IMG/VR virus record: IMGVR_UViG_2690316028_000011
DNA length: 13,352 nt
Strand: one strand, 5' to 3'
Source: a virus
Lineage: Duplodnaviria > Heunggongvirae > Uroviricota > Caudoviricetes
Positions 3,824 through 13,352 of the stretch are shown here, one piece after another; the first letter of the stretch is position 1; each line of letters opens with the position of its first letter. The notes under the pieces are model-generated. The model had not been told where the DNA came from, made no database searches, and saw only the letters and a program-made list of their open reading frames with translations. A program made the position numbers and the translations under genes.

Positions 3824-4030
3824 ATATTTAAACATTACCGAATAGGTATAAATCTCGATTGTCGATGGTATTGGTTGTGTGACAATACCTAATCTTTCCG
3901 GTATGCGTGAAGAGAATACAAACGACAGATTATGTAAGGGAAACGCGCTGAATCTTTCACTCTTTCATGCTGAGTGATTTGACGTTATATTTTTAGCCGT
4001 AAGTGAAGAGCAAACGCATGGAGCGACAAA

Positions 4031-4789: not shown

Positions 4790-5284
4790 ATGGATCGAGA
4801 GTTAAAAAATCTGACGCTGAATATCAGTCAACTGGCGGCATTGTCAGGTGTACATCGCCAGACTGCTGCGGCAAGGCTGCAAAATCTACCCGTTGCAGGG
4901 GGGCATGAAAGCAACCTCAAGCTTTATCGGGTGGTTGATATTGTGTCGGCATTTCTGGCATTACCACCGCCGGTTGCAGAAGGCGAAATGGACGCGCATG
5001 AGCGCAAAGCCTGGTATCAGTCTGAACGTGAGCGTCTTAAGTTCGAACAGGAAACGGCACAACTCATTCCGGCCAGTGATGTCAGACGGGAGTTTGCCAT
5101 CTGGGCAAAAGCGGTCGTGCAGGTGCTGGAGACATTACCGGATATTCTTGAACGTGACTGCGGTCTGCAGCCTGCCGCTGTGAGCCGTGTTCAGTCCATT
5201 ATTGATGATCTGCGCGATCAGATAGCCCTGCGGGTGACTGAAGCAGGTGCGGATGATGAGGAGGAATTACAGCAGGAGGAGTAA
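4790..5284 (+). CDS. Terminase small subunit (Nu1-like DNA packaging protein)
   Basis: 164-aa product with an N-terminal HTH-like segment (LNISQLAALSGVHRQTAAARL) and acidic C-terminus. Sits directly downstream of cos; its stop overlaps the start of the large terminase gene (TAATG at 5282-5286). SD GGAG upstream. Confidence 0.7.
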   Translation: MDRELKNLTLNISQLAALSGVHRQTAAARLQNLPVAGGHESNLKLYRVVDIVSAFLALPPPVAEGEMDAHERKAWYQSERERLKFEQETAQLIPASDVRREFAIWAKAVVQVLETLPDILERDCGLQPAAVSRVQSIIDDLRDQIALRVTEAGADDEEELQQEE

Positions 5285-5919
5285 TGCTGAATCAGGAAAC
5301 CGCAAAGGCAGCACGAACCGATTCAGGTTATATCCTTCGCGCACCGAGACGAATGCGGGTTGCTGATGCCGTTGCTCAGTATATGCGGGTGCCCATGGGG
5401 GCAGGGAACTCAGTCCCGTGGGATCCGCTGGTGGCACCGTATGTTATTGAGCCTATGAACTGCCTGGCCTCGCGTGAATACGACGCAGTGATATTTGTTG
5501 GCCCGGCACGAACCGGCAAGACTATCGGCCTGATTGACGGCTGGGTGATTTACAACGTGATTTGCGATCCTGCGGATATGCTGATCATTCAGATGACAGA
5601 GGAAAAAGCCCGCGAACACTCCAAAAAACGACTCGCCAGAACGTTTCGCGTCAGCCCGGAAGTGGTCAGTCGCCTGAGTCCGAACAAAAATGACAACAAC
5701 GTTTATGACAGAACATTCCTTGCTGGCAACTACCTGAAAATCGGCTGGCCGTCAGTCAATATCATGTCCTCATCAGATTATAAATGCGTCGCGCTGACGG
5801 ATTATGACCGTTTTCCGGAAGATATTGATGGCGAGGGGGATGCCTTCTCTCTTGCCTCAAAACGTACCACCACATTTATGTCCAGCGGTATGACGCTGGT
5901 GGAGAGTTCCCCCGCTGGC
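5284..5919 (+). pseudogene. Terminase large subunit (gpA-like), N-terminal fragment truncated by deletion
   Basis: Walker-A-like VIFVGPARTGKT and gpA-family ATPase-domain pattern. Homology ends about codon 205-210; the ORF then reads out of frame into gpI-derived sequence and stops at 5988. A full gpA is about 640 aa. Confidence 0.75.
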
Positions 5920-6433
5920 CATGCAGATCCCGGCGTTTCGTCAGAAACTGAGCGACGGCTGGTACCAGGTACGCATTGCCGGGCGTGATGCAGGTGAAAC
6001 CGAATTGTCTGCCCGTCTTAATGAGCCGCTGGCAAATGGTGCCGTGATCCACATCGTGCCGCGTCTGGCGGGAGCTAAAAGTGGCGGTGTGTTTCAGGTG
6101 GTGCTGGGGGCGGCGCTGATTGCGGTGGCATGGTGGAACCCTGTGGGCTGGCTGGGTGCCGCGGCTGTATCGGGCATGTATGCGGCAGGGGCCAGTATGA
6201 TCCTGGGCGGAGTGGCGCAGATGCTGGCACCGAAAGCCAGGACGCCCACGGCAGCAAGTACAGATAACGGCAAACAGAACACCTATTTCTCCTCACTGGA
6301 TAACATGGTTGCCCAGGGCAATGTTCTGCCTGTTCTGTACGGGGAAATGCGCGTGGGGTCACGCGTGGTTTCTCAGGAGATCAGCACGGCAGACGAAGGG
6401 GACGGTGGTCAGGTTGTGGTGATTGGTCGCTGA
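5912..6433 (+). pseudogene. Lambda gpI-like tail assembly protein, C-terminal fragment (fusion partner of the terminase remnant)
   Basis: From LAMQIPAFRQKLSDGWYQVRIAGRD... to ...VVSQEISTADEGDGGQVVVIGR aligns with the C-terminal roughly 175 residues of lambda gpI. The N-terminal ~45 codons are missing and a stop lies in frame just upstream at 5891. Confidence 0.8.
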
Positions 6434-6493: not shown

Positions 6494-9469
6494 ATGGGTA
6501 AAGGCAGCAGTAAGGGGCATACCCCGCGCGAAGCGAAGGACAACCTGAAATCCACGCAGCTGCTGAGTGTGATTGATGCCATCAGCGAAGGGCCGGTTGA
6601 AGGTCCGGTGGATGGATTAAAAAGCGTGCTGCTGAACAGTACGCCGGTGCTGGACAGTGAGGGGAATACCAATATATCCGGCGTCACGGTGGTGTTCCGG
6701 GCAGGTGAGCAGGAGCAGACTCCGCCGGAGGGGTTTGAATCCTCCGGCTCCGAGACGGTGCTGGGTACGGAAGTGAAATATGACACGCCGATCACCCGCA
6801 CCATTACGTCGGCAAACATCGACCGTCTGCGCTTTACCTTCGGTGTACAGGCACTGGTGGAAACCACCTCAAAGGGTGACAGGAATCCGTCGGAAGTCCG
6901 CCTGCTGGTTCAGATACAGCGTAATGGTGGCTGGGTGACGGAAAAAGACATCACCATTAAGGGCAAAACCACCTCGCAGTATCTGGCCTCGGTGGTGGTG
7001 GATAACCTGCCACCGCGCCCGTTTAATATCCGGATGCGCAGAATGACGCCGGACAGCACCACAGACCAGCTGCAGAACAAAACGCTCTGGTCGTCATACA
7101 CCGAAATCATCGATGTGAAACAGAGCTACCCGAACACGGCACTGGTCGGCGTGCAGGTGGATTCGGAGCAGTTCGGCAGCCAGCAGGTGAGCCGTAATTA
7201 TCATCTTCGCGGGCGTATTCTGCAGGTGCCGTCGAATTATAACCCGCAGACGCGGCAATACAGCGGTATCTGGGACGGAACGTTTAAACCGGCATACAGC
7301 AACAACATGGCCTGGTGTCTGTGGGATATGCTGACCCATCCACGCTACGGCATGGGGAAACGTCTTGGTGCGGCGGATGTGGACAAATGGGCGCTGTATG
7401 TCATCGGCCAGTACTGCGATCAGTCAGTACCGGACGGCTTTGGCGGCACGGAGCCGCGCATCACCTGTAATGCATACCTGACCACACAGCGCAAGGCGTG
7501 GGATGTGCTCAGTGATTTCTGCTCGGCGATGCGCTGTATGCCGGTATGGAACGGGCAGACGCTGACGTTCGTGCAGGACCGACCGTCGGATAAGGTGTGG
7601 ACCTATAACCGCAGTAATGTGGTGATGCCGGATGATGGCGCGCCGTTCCGCTACAGTTTCAGCGCCCTGAAAGACCGCCATAATGCCGTTGAGGTGAACT
7701 GGATTGACCCGGATAACGGCTGGGAGACGGCGACAGAGCTTGTTGAAGATACGCAGGCCATTGCCCGTTACGGTCGTAACGTCACGAAGATGGATGCCTT
7801 TGGCTGTACCAGCCGGGGGCAGGCGCACCGCGCCGGGCTGTGGCTGATTAAAACGGAACTGCTGGAAACGCAGACCGTGGACTTCAGCGTGGGTGCGGAA
7901 GGGCTTCGCCATGTACCGGGGGATGTCATTGAAATCTGCGATGATGACTATGCGGGTATCAGCACCGGCGGGCGCGTGCTGGCGGTGAACAGCCAGACCC
8001 GGACGCTGACGCTCGACCGTGAAATCACGCTGCCATCCTCCGGTACCACGCTGATAAGCCTGGTTGACGGTCAGGGTAATCCGGTCAGCGTGGAGGTCCA
8101 GTCCGTCACCGACGGCGTGAAGGTGAAAGTGAGCCGTGTTCCTGACGGCGTTGCAGAATACAGCGTGTGGGGGCTGAAGCTGCCGACGCTGCGCCAGCGC
8201 CTGTTCCGCTGCGTGAGTATCCGTGAGAACGATGACGGCACGTATGCCATCACCGCCGTGCAGCATGTACCTTCTGCCCGTAAGGTGAATGGTAAGGCGC
8301 TTTCAGCGGATATAACACTGACGCCGAAAGATATTGGTACGCTTAACTCAACAACAATGTCATTCAGCGGTGGTGCTGGTTGGTTCAAATTAGCAACGGT
8401 AACCATGCCACAGGCGAGTTCTGTTGTTTCAATTACGTTGATTGGTGGCGCGGGATTTAACGTGGGGTCACCTCAACAGGCAGGTATATCTGAACTTGTT
8501 TTGCGTGCAGGTAATGGTAATCCGAAGGGGATTACTGGTGCTTTATGGCAGCGCACATCGACAGGGTTTACAAATTTTGCCTGGGTCAATACATCTGGTG
8601 ATACTTACGATATTTACGTTGCAATCGGAAATTATGCGACTGGTGTAAATATTCAATGGGATTATACCAGTAATGCCAGCGTGACGATTCATACGTCACC
8701 AGCATATTCTGCTAATAAGCCGGAAGGGTTAACGGACGGTACAGTTTATTCACTCTATACGCCATCAGAGCAGTTTTATCCGCCTGGCGCACCAATCCCG
8801 TGGCCATCAGATACCGTTCCGTCTGGCTATGCCCTGATGCAGGGGCAGACTTTTGACAAATCTGCATACCCGAAACTTGCAGCCGCTTATCCGTCAGCCG
8901 TGATCCCTGATATGCGTGGCTGGACGATTAAGGGCAAACCCGCCAGTGGTCGTGCCGTATTGTCTCAGGAACAGGACGGCATTAAATCGCACACCCACAG
9001 CGCCAGCGCATCCAGTACGGATTTGGGGACGAAAAACACATCGTCGTTTGATTACGGAACCAAATCCACGAATAACACCGGGGCGCATACCCATAGTATT
9101 AGCGGGACTGCAAATAGTGCCGGTGCGCACCAACACAAGAGTTCCGGTGCATTTGGTGGCACGAACACGAGCATTTTCCCTAATGGTTATACCGCGATTT
9201 TAAATCTAAGCGCGGGGATTATGAGCACAACAAGCGGTAGTGGCCAGACTCGTAATGCAGGGAAGACATCATCAGATGGTGCTCATACCCACTCGCTGTC
9301 CGGCACTGCTGCAAGCGCAGGCGCACATGCACATACTGTCGGTATTGGTGCTCATACGCACTCCGTTGCGATTGGTTCACATGGACACACCATCACCGTT
9401 AACGCTGCTGGTAACGCGGAAAACACCGTCAAAAACATCGCATTTAACTATATTGTGAGGCTTGCATAA
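6494..9469 (+). CDS. Chimeric tail tip / tail fibre protein: lambda J-like N-terminal ~593 aa fused to a side-tail-fibre-like C-terminal domain with His-rich repeats
   Basis: N-terminus [24 protein letters not shown]... through ...[10 protein letters not shown] is near-identical to lambda host-specificity protein J. After nt ~8272 the sequence diverges, GC content drops, and the C-terminus carries repeated G-A-H-T-H-S / AHAHT / SHGHT motifs like those of Stf/T4 gp37-type fibres. Strong SD GGAG/GAGG upstream. Confidence 0.9.
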
Positions 9470-10044
9470 TGGCATTCAGAATGAGTGAACAACCACAGAC
9501 CATAAAAATTTATAATCTGCTGGCCGGAACTAATGAATTTATTGGTGAAGGTGACGCATATATTCCGCCTCATACAGGTCTGCCAGCAAACAGTACCGAT
9601 ATTGCACCGCCAGATATTCCGGCAGGCTTCGTGGCTGTTTTCAACAGTGATGAGGCATCGTGGCATCTCGTTGAAGATCATCGGGGAAAAACCGTCTATG
9701 ACGTGGCTTCCGGCGACGCGTTATTTATTTCTGAACTCGGTCCGTTACCGGAAAATGTTACCTGGTTATCGCCGGAAGGGGAGTTTCAGAAGTGGAACGG
9801 CACAGCCTGGGTGAAGGATACGGAAGCAGAAAAACTGTTCCGGATCCGGGAGGCGGAAGAAACAAAAAACAACCTGATGCAGGTAGCCAGTGAGCATATT
9901 GCGCCGCTTCAGGATGCTGCAGATCTGGAAATTGCAACGGAGGAAGAAATCTCGTTGCTGGAAGCATGGAAAAAGTATCGGGTATTGCTGAACCGTGTTG
10001 ATACGTCAACTGCACAGGATATTGAATGGCCAGCACTGCCGTAG
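9469..10044 (+). CDS. tfaQ: Tail fibre assembly protein (Tfa)
   Basis: 191-aa product [39 protein letters not shown]... matches the TfaQ/TfaR family. Start overlaps the stop of the upstream fibre gene (TAATG), indicating translational coupling. Confidence 0.9.
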
Positions 10045-10141
10045 GGTAAAACATATAAATTCTATAATTAGATGTATCTTTCCATTTACGGCAAGGAAGG
10101 GGGCTTGGAACACGTAAAGCATCTCACACCGAGATTATTTT

Positions 10142-10732
10142 TTATATGTCAGGTGTCTGAAGTTTTGCTTTGGCTCTTAAAATGGTTTGCCGCGAGGTTT
10201 TGAATTCCCGGGCAATGGCACTTATACTTACACCTGACTTAATTCGTTCGAATACCACCTGTTTCTGTTCTTCATTTAACACAGGTGGTCGACCAAAACG
10301 TTTCCCTGCGCCGCGGGCTCTTACTATCCCGGAATGAGTGCGTTCAAGTAAAAGGTCTCGTTCAAATTCAGCGACTGCTGAAATTACTTGCATCATCATT
10401 TTTCCTGTTGGACTGGTCAGGTCAATGCCACCCAATGCTAAGCAATGCACTCTGATACCTGTTTCGGTCAGTTGTTCCACTGTTTTCCTGATATCCATTG
10501 CATTACAACCAAGGCGATCCAGTTTTGTCACAATCAATTGATCACCACATTTCAGGCGAGCAAGCAACCGGTTAAAACCAGGACGCTCACTGGTTGCTGC
10601 TGAGCCGCTAATGTGTTCTTCGATTATTTGCTGAGGTTTGATTTTAAAACCTGCACTTTCGATTTCCCGGCGTTGATTTTCGGTGGTCTGATCCAGCGTT
10701 GATATCCGACAGTAAGCAAAAATTCGAGACAT
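10142..10732 (-). CDS. pinQ: Serine recombinase, DNA-invertase (Pin) family
   Basis: 196-aa product [20 protein letters not shown]... with the catalytic-serine motif (R-I-S-T-x-D-Q) and a C-terminal HTH ([18 protein letters not shown]). Matches PinQ/PinR. Convergent with tfa. Confidence 0.9.
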
Positions 10733-11049
10733 AGTGAGACTCTATTCGAAATTGGTGTTCATATCATAATGCATCTCAGAAAATAATTATGATTATTTTT
10801 GTGCATATTTGTATGTACACGTTCGAAAATAAACGAATGCGTATGCAACCCCGTAATTTTTGGTGAGACCCAAAATCGATTTTGTGAAAAATGGCTTTAA
10901 CTCGGTTTGTTTTTCGAGTTCCGGGCGGACTCAAGGAAGAAGAATAGTGTTGCGTGTTATTTTAACCAGATTTCAAGTTGTTTGGACGTGGAAAAGTGGA
11001 GCAAAATGTTGTTAAAGTGGAAAAATGATAAAAAAGTAAGTTTATTATA

Positions 11050-11283
11050 TTACATTTTACCATTTAAATTTTGGTTGTCTTTAAGAACTGATATCGCTGT
11101 TTGTAATAATTCTTTGTTATCCAGCCATGATTTTTTCTTTATGTTTCCTTCAATGTAATCAAGCAATGTTCTGGTATTAATAGGTCTTCCCTGTTTTGCT
11201 ACTTCCACTACAGCATCCCCTAGGATAATTCTTACTTCAGGAAGCTGCGCAGGGAACCACTTTAGGGTGTCTTTTGATTTCAT
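11050..11283 (-). CDS. ydfK: Small prophage protein YdfK/YnaE family (cold-shock-induced in K-12)
   Basis: 77-aa product MKSKDTLKWFPAQLPEVRIILGDAVVEVAKQGRPINTRTLLDYIEGNIKKK... The six-frame ORF extends to 11316 but the internal ATG at 11283 matches the known family start. Confidence 0.85.
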   Translation of the reverse strand: MKSKDTLKWFPAQLPEVRIILGDAVVEVAKQGRPINTRTLLDYIEGNIKKKSWLDNKELLQTAISVLKDNQNLNGKM

Positions 11284-12068
11284 GAAGATATTCCTTAAAA
11301 TATTATTGATTTTCATTGCGATATTGTATGTCTGATTCAGGATATGTTGACTTATACATCGGTTTTGTCTGGGTTATTGGATATGCCAATCCCTAATTTT
11401 ATTAGGGCATGACTAAAAATGCTGAATATGATAAGGAGAGAAGTGATTATCAGTATGCTGTTCATATAGCCTCGAATTAGTAATGTGTTATATATGATAT
11501 AGTTGACAATTTTTATCTTGGGTGTTTTTAAAGTTCGTAGATAAACATTGTCGTTTCAGGTATACAGGAATGCTAGCAGGTGGCAGCAAAAATCAGGCGG
11601 TTTATGGCGCAAGCTGAAGCGGCAACTGCAAACTATCTTATGCAGAGACTCTACACGGATTGGGTTTAAAAGTATACATAGATAACAGTTTTTATCTGAA
11701 AAAGAAAAATATCAAGGTGATATAGCCTATATGCCTTTGATGCGGAGGAATGACTGTGATGGGAGTGATGTATCTGAATAGTTGAAAAACCGCAGACACG
11801 CCTTATGCAAGAACGTGCTGCGGTTGGCTGGTAAATTTTTCGATAGTGTGAGTATTGAATGATTTCCAGCCGTTCTTGATTTTACGCATAAATCCATGAA
11901 AAAACTACTTATCTGTTGGGGAGTTTTTTTGGGGCATATATGGGACAGAAATAGGCCCCAGATAGACACTGAGATCGAACTTAGGATGCTTTTTAAAAAA
12001 TGCAACTATCTGAAAAAACCTAGAAAACGCCAAGGAAACCACAGGATGGGAAAAAACACCTGTGAATT

Positions 12069-13352
12069 ATGGATTTCCAGTTATATTCGCTCGGCGCAGC
12101 GTTAGTGTTTCATGAAATATTTTTTCCTGAATCATCAACGGCAATGGCGTTAATTCTGGCAATGGGAACCTATGGTGCAGGTTATGTGGCGCGTATTGTC
12201 GGAGCATTTATTTTCGGCAAAATGGGCGACAGAATAGGGCGTAAAAAAGTGCTCTTTATTACCATCACCATGATGGGGATCTGTACCACCTTAATTGGAG
12301 TGTTACCGACCTATGCACAGATTGGTGTTTTTGCCCCCATCTTGCTGGTGACGCTGCGTATTATTCAGGGATTGGGTGCAGGTGCGGAAATTTCCGGTGC
12401 CGGTACGATGCTGGCGGAATATGCGCCAAAAGGTAAGCGCGGAATTATCTCCTCATTTGTGGCTATGGGAACTAACTGCGGAACCTTAAGCGCAACGGCA
12501 ATCTGGGCCTTTATGTTCTTCATTCTCAGTAAAGAGGAACTGCTGGCGTGGGGATGGCGTATACCGTTCCTGGCGAGCGTTGTCGTGATGGTCTTTGCTA
12601 TCTGGTTACGTATGAATCTGAAAGAAAGCCCGGTCTTTGAGAAGGTTAACGACAGCAACCAACCGACAGCAAAACCTGCACCTGCTGGTAGCATGTTCCA
12701 GAGCAAATCCTTCTGGCTGGCAACAGGGCTGCGTTTTGGTCAGGCGGGTAACTCCGGTTTAATTCAGACTTTCCTTGCAGGCTATTTAGTACAGACGTTA
12801 TTGTTTAACAAAGCAATTCCAACAGATGCATTGATGATCAGTTCGATTCTCGGCTTTATGACCATTCCGTTCCTTGGTTGGTTATCCGATAAAATTGGTC
12901 GCCGGATCCCGTATATTATTATGAATACCTCTGCGATTGTGCTGGCGTGGCCAATGCTTTCTATCATCGTAGATAAAAGCTATGCCCCGAGCACCATTAT
13001 GGTTGCACTGATTGTGATTCATAACTGTGCGGTGCTGGGATTATTTGCTCTGGAAAACATTACCATGGCAGAAATGTTCGGCTGTAAAAACCGCTTTACC
13101 CGGATGGCTATTTCAAAAGAAATTGGTGGTCTTATCGCTTCCGGTTTTGGTCCTATCCTGGCGGGTATTTTCTGCACCATGACGGAATCCTGGTATCCGA
13201 TCGCCATTATGATCATGGCATATTCAGTAATTGGTTTAATCTCTGCGCTGAAAATGCCAGAGGTGAAAGACCGTGATTTAAGTGCGCTGGAAGACGCTGC
13301 GGAAGATCAACCGCGTGTTGTAAGAGCTGCGCAACCTTCCAGAAGTCTGTAA
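12069..13352 (+). CDS. ydfJ: MFS transporter (metabolite:H+ symporter family), N-terminally truncated at the prophage junction; likely non-functional
   Basis: 427-aa ORF with MFS signatures (GKMGDRIGRKK, multiple TM helices, WGWRIPF, LSDKIGRR). Compared with ProP-like homologues the first ~35-40 residues (first half of TM1) are absent. No convincing SD before the ATG. Stop codon coincides with the window end. Confidence 0.85.
   Translation: MDFQLYSLGAALVFHEIFFPESSTAMALILAMGTYGAGYVARIVGAFIFGKMGDRIGRKKVLFITITMMGICTTLIGVLPTYAQIGVFAPILLVTLRIIQGLGAGAEISGAGTMLAEYAPKGKRGIISSFVAMGTNCGTLSATAIWAFMFFILSKEELLAWGWRIPFLASVVVMVFAIWLRMNLKESPVFEKVNDSNQPTAKPAPAGSMFQSKSFWLATGLRFGQAGNSGLIQTFLAGYLVQTLLFNKAIPTDALMISSILGFMTIPFLGWLSDKIGRRIPYIIMNTSAIVLAWPMLSIIVDKSYAPSTIMVALIVIHNCAVLGLFALENITMAEMFGCKNRFTRMAISKEIGGLIASGFGPILAGIFCTMTESWYPIAIMIMAYSVIGLISALKMPEVKDRDLSALEDAAEDQPRVVRAAQPSRSL

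Follow-up and report, generated by a model that had tools for sequence, protein, structure and literature searches.

The pinQ locus of lambdoid prophages as a relic of a Tn3-family transposon resolvase that has lost its crossover site and a catalytic arginine

The closest described systems for the gene considered here are two groups of serine recombinases: the Din-family DNA invertases (Gin of Mu, Cin of P1, Hin and PinE of e14), which are characterized by two inverted 26-bp sites of the TTnTCnnAAACC NN GGTTTnnGAnAA type, and the resolvases (TnpR) of Tn3-family transposons. Din-family members are approximately 60–70% identical to one another and functionally interchangeable, and Tn3/gamma-delta resolvase bound at its res site represses both tnpA and tnpR. 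Here, we compare with these systems the gene pinQ (positions 10142–10732, minus strand), which encodes a small serine recombinase of 196 amino acids in a 13,352-nucleotide stretch of viral DNA (IMG/VR record IMGVR_UViG_2690316028_000011; hereafter, the window). The window is the right-hand portion of a cryptic Escherichia coli prophage of the lambdoid Qin type, inserted in ydfJ. For decades, pinQ and pinR of E. coli K-12 have carried the annotation of DNA invertases, and an initial annotation of the window, made from its sequence, described pinQ as an orphan Pin invertase that lacks a recognizable invertible segment and crossover sites. We find that the pinQ locus is a transposon resolvase relic, kept by phages after the loss of its crossover site and of a catalytic arginine, an identity that corrects the long-standing K-12 annotation.

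PinQ among the small serine recombinases

The pinQ open reading frame is intact, as the initial annotation had stated, and its product carries the Pfam domains Resolvase (PF00239; E = 2.5e-36) and HTH_7 (PF02796; E = 3.8e-11), with Ser11 of the motif YCRISTLDQ aligned with the catalytic Ser10 of gamma-delta resolvase. Domain-level and structural databases placed the protein only broadly: no NCBIfam family was found above cut-off, PHROGs returned just the generic phrog_125 ‘DNA invertase’, and among Protein Data Bank entries PinQ was about equally distant from Gin (E = 2.7e-29) and from gamma-delta/Tn3 resolvase (E = 2.4e-22 to 6e-22). Amino acid identity was 84% to the TnpR of an intact E. coli transposon and 77–78% to TnpR-like proteins of Shewanella and Erwinia versus 39% to PinE, values with which the label of orphan Pin invertase cannot be squared. 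The recognition helices of PinQ and of the TnpR of the intact transposon are nearly alike (TSRQTILR versus TTRQTILR), and relatives at 60–78% identity, found in Shewanella, Photorhabdus, Erwinia, Mycoavidus, an Oxalobacteraceae metagenome-assembled genome and others (one genome per species was scanned), are preceded by arrays of TGTCCGAAA / TTTCGGACA motifs in a res-like arrangement. The label ‘DNA invertase from lambdoid prophage Rac’ has spread in databases to transposon resolvases of many genera. Judged from its sequence, PinQ is not a Din-family invertase, and no adjacent invertible segment is to be expected.

A different account, implicit in the initial annotation, is that pinQ is a Din-family (Gin/Cin/Hin/Pin) invertase whose invertible fibre segment and sites were deleted. 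Although pinQ adjoins stf–tfa, as in Mu, P1 and e14, and both its annotation and its phrog_125 match read ‘DNA invertase’, this account is at odds with the preceding identity values, with the Tn3-type terminal repeat just past the pinQ stop codon and the res-like array upstream of the gene (both described below), and with the window itself, in which no Din-type site was found, even a degenerate one. A position-weight model of the Din-type 26-bp site combined the two e14 pix sites of K-12 (CTCTCGAAAACC TT GGTTTGGGAGAA and TTCTCCCAAACC AA CGTTTATGAAAA) with hix and gix sites. Its best score in the window was 9.5, whereas real pix sites scored approximately 30 and the top scores of shuffled windows had a median of 10.5; at three or fewer mismatches, the 16-bp pix core matched neither the window nor the intact Qin of strain 042. 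The window-wide scan for gix-, hix- or pix-like crossover sites thus returned nothing above chance, in agreement with the initial annotation. The one weak partial match that had been pointed out there, near 10080–10105, is not a gix-like site: it overlaps GGGGG (10099–10103), the outer end of a decayed Tn3-family terminal repeat. No inverted repeats bracket tfa/stf in the window, and a Hin-like layout, with inverted repeats around pinQ itself, was considered and set aside, no such pair being present in the window. An alternative fibre/tfa cassette is likewise absent, as had been proposed: tblastn of TfaQ and of the C-terminal 400 amino acids of Stf against the window matched only their own genes.

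The convergent arrangement of pinQ and tfaQ, described from the outset with its 97-bp spacer (10045–10141), is repeated without an invertible segment in E. coli 042, in phages 2H10 and Tritos and in a locus of a diverged lineage (L034), so the ‘orphan’ state is the normal state of pinQ and no peculiarity of the window. All phages and prophages inspected share this geometry, including Tritos, whose fibre genes are unrelated, and the identical PinQ protein is encoded by viable lambdoid phages (2H10, Tritos, mEp460_ev081, HannyBb and others). In phages that lack pinQ (lambda, HK629, ev099 and others), homology to the window stops at 10031–10050, that is, at the tfa stop codon, which also speaks against a deleted fibre segment. 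We therefore regard descent from a Din-family invertase as exceedingly improbable.

An intact Tn3-family transposon and its remnants beside pinQ

The E. coli plasmid relative of PinQ, at 85% protein identity, belongs to a compact 3.8-kb transposon that consists of a terminal repeat, tnpA (994 amino acids, leftward), res, tnpR (196 amino acids, rightward) and a second repeat, with the gene annotated as ‘Tn3 family transposase’ divergent from the recombinase gene. This element, which has no name, occurs on E. coli plasmids and chromosomes (for example, NZ_AP042706.1 1966165–1969988, with recombinase WP_000086536.1). In one strain, copies that are 99.9–100% identical were found on the chromosome and four plasmids, and other strains have the element elsewhere. 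On the chromosome it lies between marR and marA, bounded by 38-bp repeats without a mismatch and by a 5-bp target duplication (TTTTT), from which we conclude that the element is mobile. In that strain (E. coli OkiPb01717; locus L033, NZ_AP042706.1 1965865–1970288), the insertion splits the marRAB operon, which could alter regulation of multiple antibiotic resistance. The same association extends to Shewanella, in which a homologue with 77% identity (L014) lies beside a divergent 1,033-amino acid protein with DDE_Tnp_Tn3 (E = 1.4e-148) and DUF4158 domains, and a 38-bp GGGG...CTAAG repeat (GGGGTCCGCTTGGAAAACGGAAAATATCCTACGCTAAG) follows the 3' end of the transposase gene.

The similarity between the window and the E. 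coli transposon is not confined to the recombinase gene. By blastn, window positions 10097–10788 aligned continuously with positions 4943–5639 of a transposon locus (L032) at 82.8% identity over 697 columns. Past the pinQ stop codon, an 8-nucleotide linker (10134–10141, minus strand; AAAATAAT here, AAAATAGT in the intact transposon) leads into a decayed tnpR-side terminal inverted repeat (10099–10133, minus strand; GGGGGCTTGGAACACGTAAAGCATCTCACACCGAG on the plus strand), which differs from the intact 38-bp repeat (GGGGTCCGCTTGGAAAACGGAAAATATCCCACGCTAAG) by, among other changes, a 3-bp deletion. When the 43 nucleotides past the pinQ stop were compared with the 46 nucleotides past the tnpR stop of the chromosomal transposon (L033), 34 of the 43 matched with one 3-nucleotide gap, a score that was reached by none of 5,000 shuffles and that made this the best 43-mer in the window on both strands. 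Homology ends at the outer CCCC of the repeat, the same point at which three independent transposon insertions diverge, and the match of the window to transposon copies on plasmids begins at 10103. The significance of the terminal repeat came solely from this full linker-plus-repeat comparison with the closer E. coli transposon; the Shewanella repeat was tried and dropped, its best match (10103–10118) being reached in 71 of 200 window-wide shuffles. The relic has one end only, a second terminal repeat being absent from the window, and since tnpA was not detected in the window either, the locus is a relic rather than a transposon. A similarity to tnpA noticed by eye around 10900–10965 was supported neither by tblastn nor by local alignment and is not claimed. 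From these sequence comparisons, the origin of pinQ as part of a transposon can be taken as demonstrated.

Upstream of pinQ, the window retains a graded remnant of res on the minus strand. Subsite III (10743–10764) is ungapped and collinear with the intact res, which lies at L033 3330–3483 (8/10, 8/10 and 9/10 matches in successive 10-nucleotide bins), and aligns with the TTTCGTACA motifs of relatives; a probable pinQ −10 element, TATGAT (10763–10768, minus strand), lies beside it. Subsite II (10774–10805) is degraded, with 6–8/10 matches per bin (TGCACAAAA...TTTTCTGAGA versus TATCCGAAA...CTTTCGGACA in the intact site) and mutated CGAAA/TTTCG cores. Of the crossover site, subsite I (10820–10845), only the pinQ-proximal half (TTTTCGAACGT) is recognizable, the other half having been lost (4–5/10 matches per bin; the intact transposon has TGACCGAAAACGACCGGTTTCGGACA). 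Identity to the intact res thus decays outward from the gene, from 8–9/10 (10743–10782) through 6–7/10 (10783–10812) to 4–5/10 (10813–10852) and then background, with overall conservation of approximately 85%, 65% and 45% for subsite III, subsite II and the subsite I region, respectively. A position-weight model of site I, built from seven intact relatives that it scores at 29–39, gave −1.4 at the homologous window position, and the best resolvase-type site I anywhere in the window scored 6.3, versus a shuffle median of 6.1. The subsites near pinQ overlap its probable promoter and form the best-conserved non-coding stretch of the relic.

A near-perfect palindrome (CCAAAATCGATTTTGTG; CACAAAATCGATTTTGGG in the pinQ orientation) lies upstream of the res remnant at approximately 10866–10886. 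It is kept in prophage lineages (L024, L025 and L034) and absent from the intact transposon. As a candidate crossover site it was rejected, because its half-sites face the wrong way for a Din-type site, it lies outside the ungapped res alignment and its resolvase-site score is poor.

Two relatives show arrangements of their own. In Erwinia oleae (L018, 1268–2652), two PinQ-like recombinase genes (198 and 194 amino acids) stand head to head, and the interval that separates them contains several TGTACGAAA-type motifs, an unusual double-resolvase layout. In Budvicia aquatica (L023, approximately 3900–4000), a Tn3-family terminal repeat (GGGGTCCGCTTGGAAAGCGGAAAATATCCTACGCTAAG) and the 3' end of a tnpA gene lie directly upstream of a PinQ-like gene that lacks the codons before residue 8. 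Another resolvase gene was apparently hit by a related transposon, either at its 5' end or in its res region.

A catalytic arginine lost in a gene under purifying selection

The initial annotation had regarded pinQ as intact with its catalytic serine motif. The serine is in place; the active site as a whole is not. Codon 76 (10505–10507, minus strand) is TGT (Cys) in pinQ and CGT (Arg) in the intact tnpR, a single CGT-to-TGT transition, and in a HMMER alignment to gamma-delta resolvase Cys76 falls on the catalytic Arg71. Intact relatives and PinE share an invariant KLDRLGRN motif, which reads KLDRLGCN in PinQ, and the K-12 protein carries the same cysteine. The other catalytic positions are occupied (Y7, R9, S11, E39 and R73, with glutamate at position 39 in intact relatives too), but PinQ does not have the complete Tn3 catalytic set of Y6, R8, S10, D36, R68 and R71 (PMC2794168). 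In Tn3 resolvase, Olorunniji and Stark found that mutations at these six residues abolish recombination (PMC2794168); strand cleavage falls approximately 1,000-fold, whereas binding to site I is not abolished (PMC2794168). Since one of six crucial residues is missing, the functional prediction for PinQ has to be corrected.

Among the loci examined, the cysteine is always accompanied by loss of the crossover site. Arginine occupies this position in 112 of 120 homologue clusters, and among the 120 cysteine is confined to PinQ/PinR clusters and one sister lineage (P0009, 85% identical), the gene of which likewise converges on a tfa. Every phage- or prophage-type sequence examined (15 of 15: 14 fetched loci and the window) has the cysteine and no intact site I (scores ≤10.3), whereas all eight loci with an intact site I and a readable motif have the arginine (site I scores of 31.8–38.6). 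Since both losses are found in all phage- and prophage-type sequences examined, both occurred before the prophage lineages diverged. Five single-member clusters (P0004–P0008) are clean chimeras of an N-terminal plasmid-transposon TnpR, with the arginine, and a C-terminal PinQ, which suggests that the mobile transposon and the prophage relic occasionally undergo homologous recombination, unless the joins are artefacts of assembly.

The gene has nonetheless been kept. Between two cysteine-bearing prophage lineages, the ratio of nonsynonymous to synonymous substitution rates (dN/dS) was 0.35 at a dS of 0.23 (a rough hand chi-square on the counts gave p ~1e-4 against neutrality), and pinQ is thus under purifying selection, retained after loss of both subsite I and the Arg71-equivalent. 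The relic, at ≥80% coverage, is present in 2,728 of 5,426 complete E. coli genomes, mostly at ≥99% identity, with two or more copies (up to six) in many of them, and it occurs with the same geometry in viable lambdoid phages.

Such retention could also be read as evidence of a working resolvase, one that resolves phage or prophage dimers via the res remnant or recombines pinR and pinQ (in Rac and Qin), rearranging the terminus region. The intact and selected open reading frame, the multiple copies per genome and the still recognizable res-like region upstream would all suit such an enzyme, but the crossover subsite on which it would have to act is unrecognizable (score of −1.4) and its catalytic Arg71-equivalent has gone, and we consider this reading very unlikely.

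Possible roles of PinQ and the reported P-segment inversion

The sequence comparisons show pinQ to be the surviving tnpR of a Tn3-family transposon; quite probably, its product is a crippled recombinase that has been kept as a DNA-binding protein. The transposon entered an ancestral lambdoid phage immediately downstream of tfa, and its transposase gene and other repeat have been lost, which leaves one decayed repeat, tnpR and a decayed res (approximately 10743–10845). In the phage/prophage lineage, crossover subsite I is destroyed and the Arg71-equivalent is a cysteine, yet the reading frame, the helix-turn-helix domain and the promoter-proximal subsites are conserved. PinQ would be recombination-dead or severely crippled, with efficient strand exchange presumably lost, and may persist as a sequence-specific DNA-binding protein that, by homology to the TnpR of Tn3, could repress its own promoter via subsites II and III. 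The res sites of newly arriving, related transposons might be bound as well, the recognition helix of their resolvase being almost the same as that of PinQ. As a tnpR of transposon origin, pinQ never had a tail-fibre invertible segment, hence the orphan appearance, and PinQ, if indeed recombination-dead, would not be a DNA invertase.

Several observations weigh against this interpretation. The predicted binding of PinQ to subsites II and III and the predicted autoregulation draw on homology to Tn3-type systems, and the promoter and terminator scan at pinQ gave nothing decisive. The assignment of a destroyed subsite I rests on collinearity, and unconstrained local alignment upstream of 10788 was not significant, so that homology in the subsite I region is weak. 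The loss of tnpA left no trace, the best tblastn match of the intact TnpA to the window having E = 5.6. The Tn3 mutations R71A and R71K, which abolish recombination, were made in an activated variant and are substitutions other than the Arg-to-Cys change of PinQ (PMC2794168). Most directly, Kirigo et al. (2025) reported in a peer-reviewed study that overproduction of K-12 PinQ increased the inverted share of the e14 P segment from approximately 30% to 88%, with resistance to T2 (PMC12529663); if PinQ acts directly on the P segment, it would be catalytically active despite Cys76.

This last report is the basis for a quite different function, in which PinQ is an active invertase in trans that recognizes e14 pix, inverts the 1.8-kb P segment and so yields a chimeric StfE2 that blocks T2 adsorption. 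The initial annotation had also suggested action in trans, and there it was partly borne out: no local substrate is present and a trans effect has been reported (PMC12529663), although the gene family and the catalytic integrity of PinQ had been misjudged. In that study, the P segment was 88% inverted on PinQ overproduction versus 26–30% in controls, the effect was lost in stfP, stfE and e14 deletions, and T2 induced pinQ/pinR (PMC12529663); furthermore, the pix half-site CTCTCGAAAACC and the resolvase-family half-site TGACCGAAAACG have the core CGAAAAC in common. Against these points, the protein used was K-12 PinQ, with cysteine at the catalytic Arg71 position, and the qPCR values given in supplementary Table S4 of the same study point elsewhere: 30% of the P segment was inverted in the wild type, compared with 22% after deletion of pinQ and 1.5% after deletion of pinE, although pinQ and pinR were still present in the latter strain (PMC12529663), so PinE is required and native PinQ/PinR are not sufficient. 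Even so, PinQ is named the dominant invertase in the main text (PMC12529663). Neither PinQ overproduction in a pinE-null background nor an active-site mutant was found in the text and supplement consulted (PMC12529663). A reversible invertase acting on sites of equal quality should not yield a ratio of 88:12 (49% was obtained with PinE), and selection or an indirect effect may have contributed. Nor do the sites fit: the pix sites score −12 and −5.5 on the resolvase-family site model versus 29–39 for real sites, the helix-turn-helix of PinQ resembles that of TnpR rather than that of PinE, and pinQ occurs in phages and in about half of E. coli genomes irrespective of e14. Because of Cys76 and the poor fit of pix to the resolvase-family model, direct catalysis on the P segment, which is unproven, is doubtful, and an active trans invertase is in our view unlikely.

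A reconciliation of the relic with the inversion data is that PinQ and PinR of K-12 are disabled Tn3-family resolvase fossils, selected as DNA-binding proteins, and that the reported inversion is performed by PinE with PinQ acting indirectly, a combination for and against which we find the balance even. Possible indirect routes include biasing or selecting one orientation of the segment, or action as a repressor of, or decoy for, the res sites of related transposons. The study mentions neither Tn3 nor resolvase ancestry nor catalytic residues (PMC12529663). Cys76 bears directly on its claim of a ‘recombinase-activated’ anti-phage response and makes the mechanism testable. Our literature search found no work that links pinQ/pinR or the repeat sequence to a Tn3-family transposon, though earlier notes may exist.

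Prophage setting and comparison with known systems

The relic sits at one end of a defective prophage. In E. coli 042, the Qin region has the order gpJ, lom, stf, tfaQ, pinQ (opposite strand), ydfK, ynfT and ydfJ', and this region and those of many other strains are 99.9% identical to window positions 8267–12100. The immediate neighbour, tfaQ (9469–10044, plus strand; Caudo_TAP, E = 3.6e-43), is a tail fibre assembly gene of the phage, outside the recombinase system. In phage Tritos (L004), the fibre genes are unrelated to those of the window, yet identity is 98% over window positions 9933–12080, a span that comprises the last 37 tfa codons, the relic, ydfK and the sequence up to the ydfJ junction; the block from pinQ to ydfK and the att-proximal end of these phages therefore move together as one unit.

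Farther upstream, open reading frames with Pfam matches to a holin, a lysozyme, an Rz-like protein, CspI, GnsB, a Nu1-like protein, a terminase-A fragment and a tail-I fragment were found. At 5284–6433, an N-terminal fragment of the terminase large subunit (GpA_ATPase, 234 amino acids) directly abuts and overlaps a C-terminal fragment of tail assembly protein I, so that none of the head genes and few of the tail genes are left. The open reading frame at 6494–9469 (991 amino acids) is an in-frame J–Stf fusion with its junction at approximately 8267–8271, in which the N-terminal ~590 amino acids of J (FNIII-A_GpJ and Phage-tail_3) are joined to the C-terminal 400 amino acids of Stf (Collar domain), lom and the Stf N terminus having been deleted. 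A probe for this junction had ≥80% coverage in just 1 of the 5,426 complete E. coli genomes, where the match was in two pieces. This Qin variant has fewer deletions than that of K-12 but is defective: given the fusion and the fragmentary upstream reading frames, the prophage is heavily deleted and cannot make particles.

Compared with the Din family, PinQ shares the Resolvase and HTH_7 fold, a tail-fibre neighbourhood and a historical name. It differs in its identity to PinE (39%), in the absence of 26-bp flanking sites, of an invertible segment and of an alternative fibre/tfa cassette, in its DNA-binding domain and predicted half-site (TGTCCGAAA type versus TTnTCnnAAACC), and in that pinQ converges on tfa rather than abutting a crossover site. 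The correspondence with the 3.8-kb Tn3-family element is far more detailed. It includes 84% protein and 82.8% DNA identity between recombinases that are both 196 amino acids long, the length of the linker from stop codon to repeat, the position and sequence of the repeat, the collinearity of res subsites III, II and I and a nearly identical recognition helix, and the nearest relatives of PinQ sit beside Tn3-family DDE transposases within 38-bp GGGG...TAAG repeats flanked by 5-bp duplications. Unlike that element, the relic has neither tnpA nor a second repeat, its remaining repeat bears a 3-bp deletion and 8 substitutions, its subsite I is destroyed and its subsite II degraded, the Arg71-equivalent is a cysteine, and it lies in a lambdoid late region in which it is vertically stable in approximately 50% of E. 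coli genomes. That these genes descend from a Tn3-family element accounts for the fact that invertible segments have never been found next to pinQ or pinR. The locus also provides a natural example in which selection has preserved a serine recombinase although its crossover site and a catalytic arginine have both gone, and such retention points to a non-catalytic role, for example, repression or the binding of related res sites. For that role the Tn3 TnpR, as a repressor at res, offers the nearest model, in that the subsites near pinQ overlap a probable promoter; unlike in TnpR, repression or DNA binding would be the only activity that PinQ has left.

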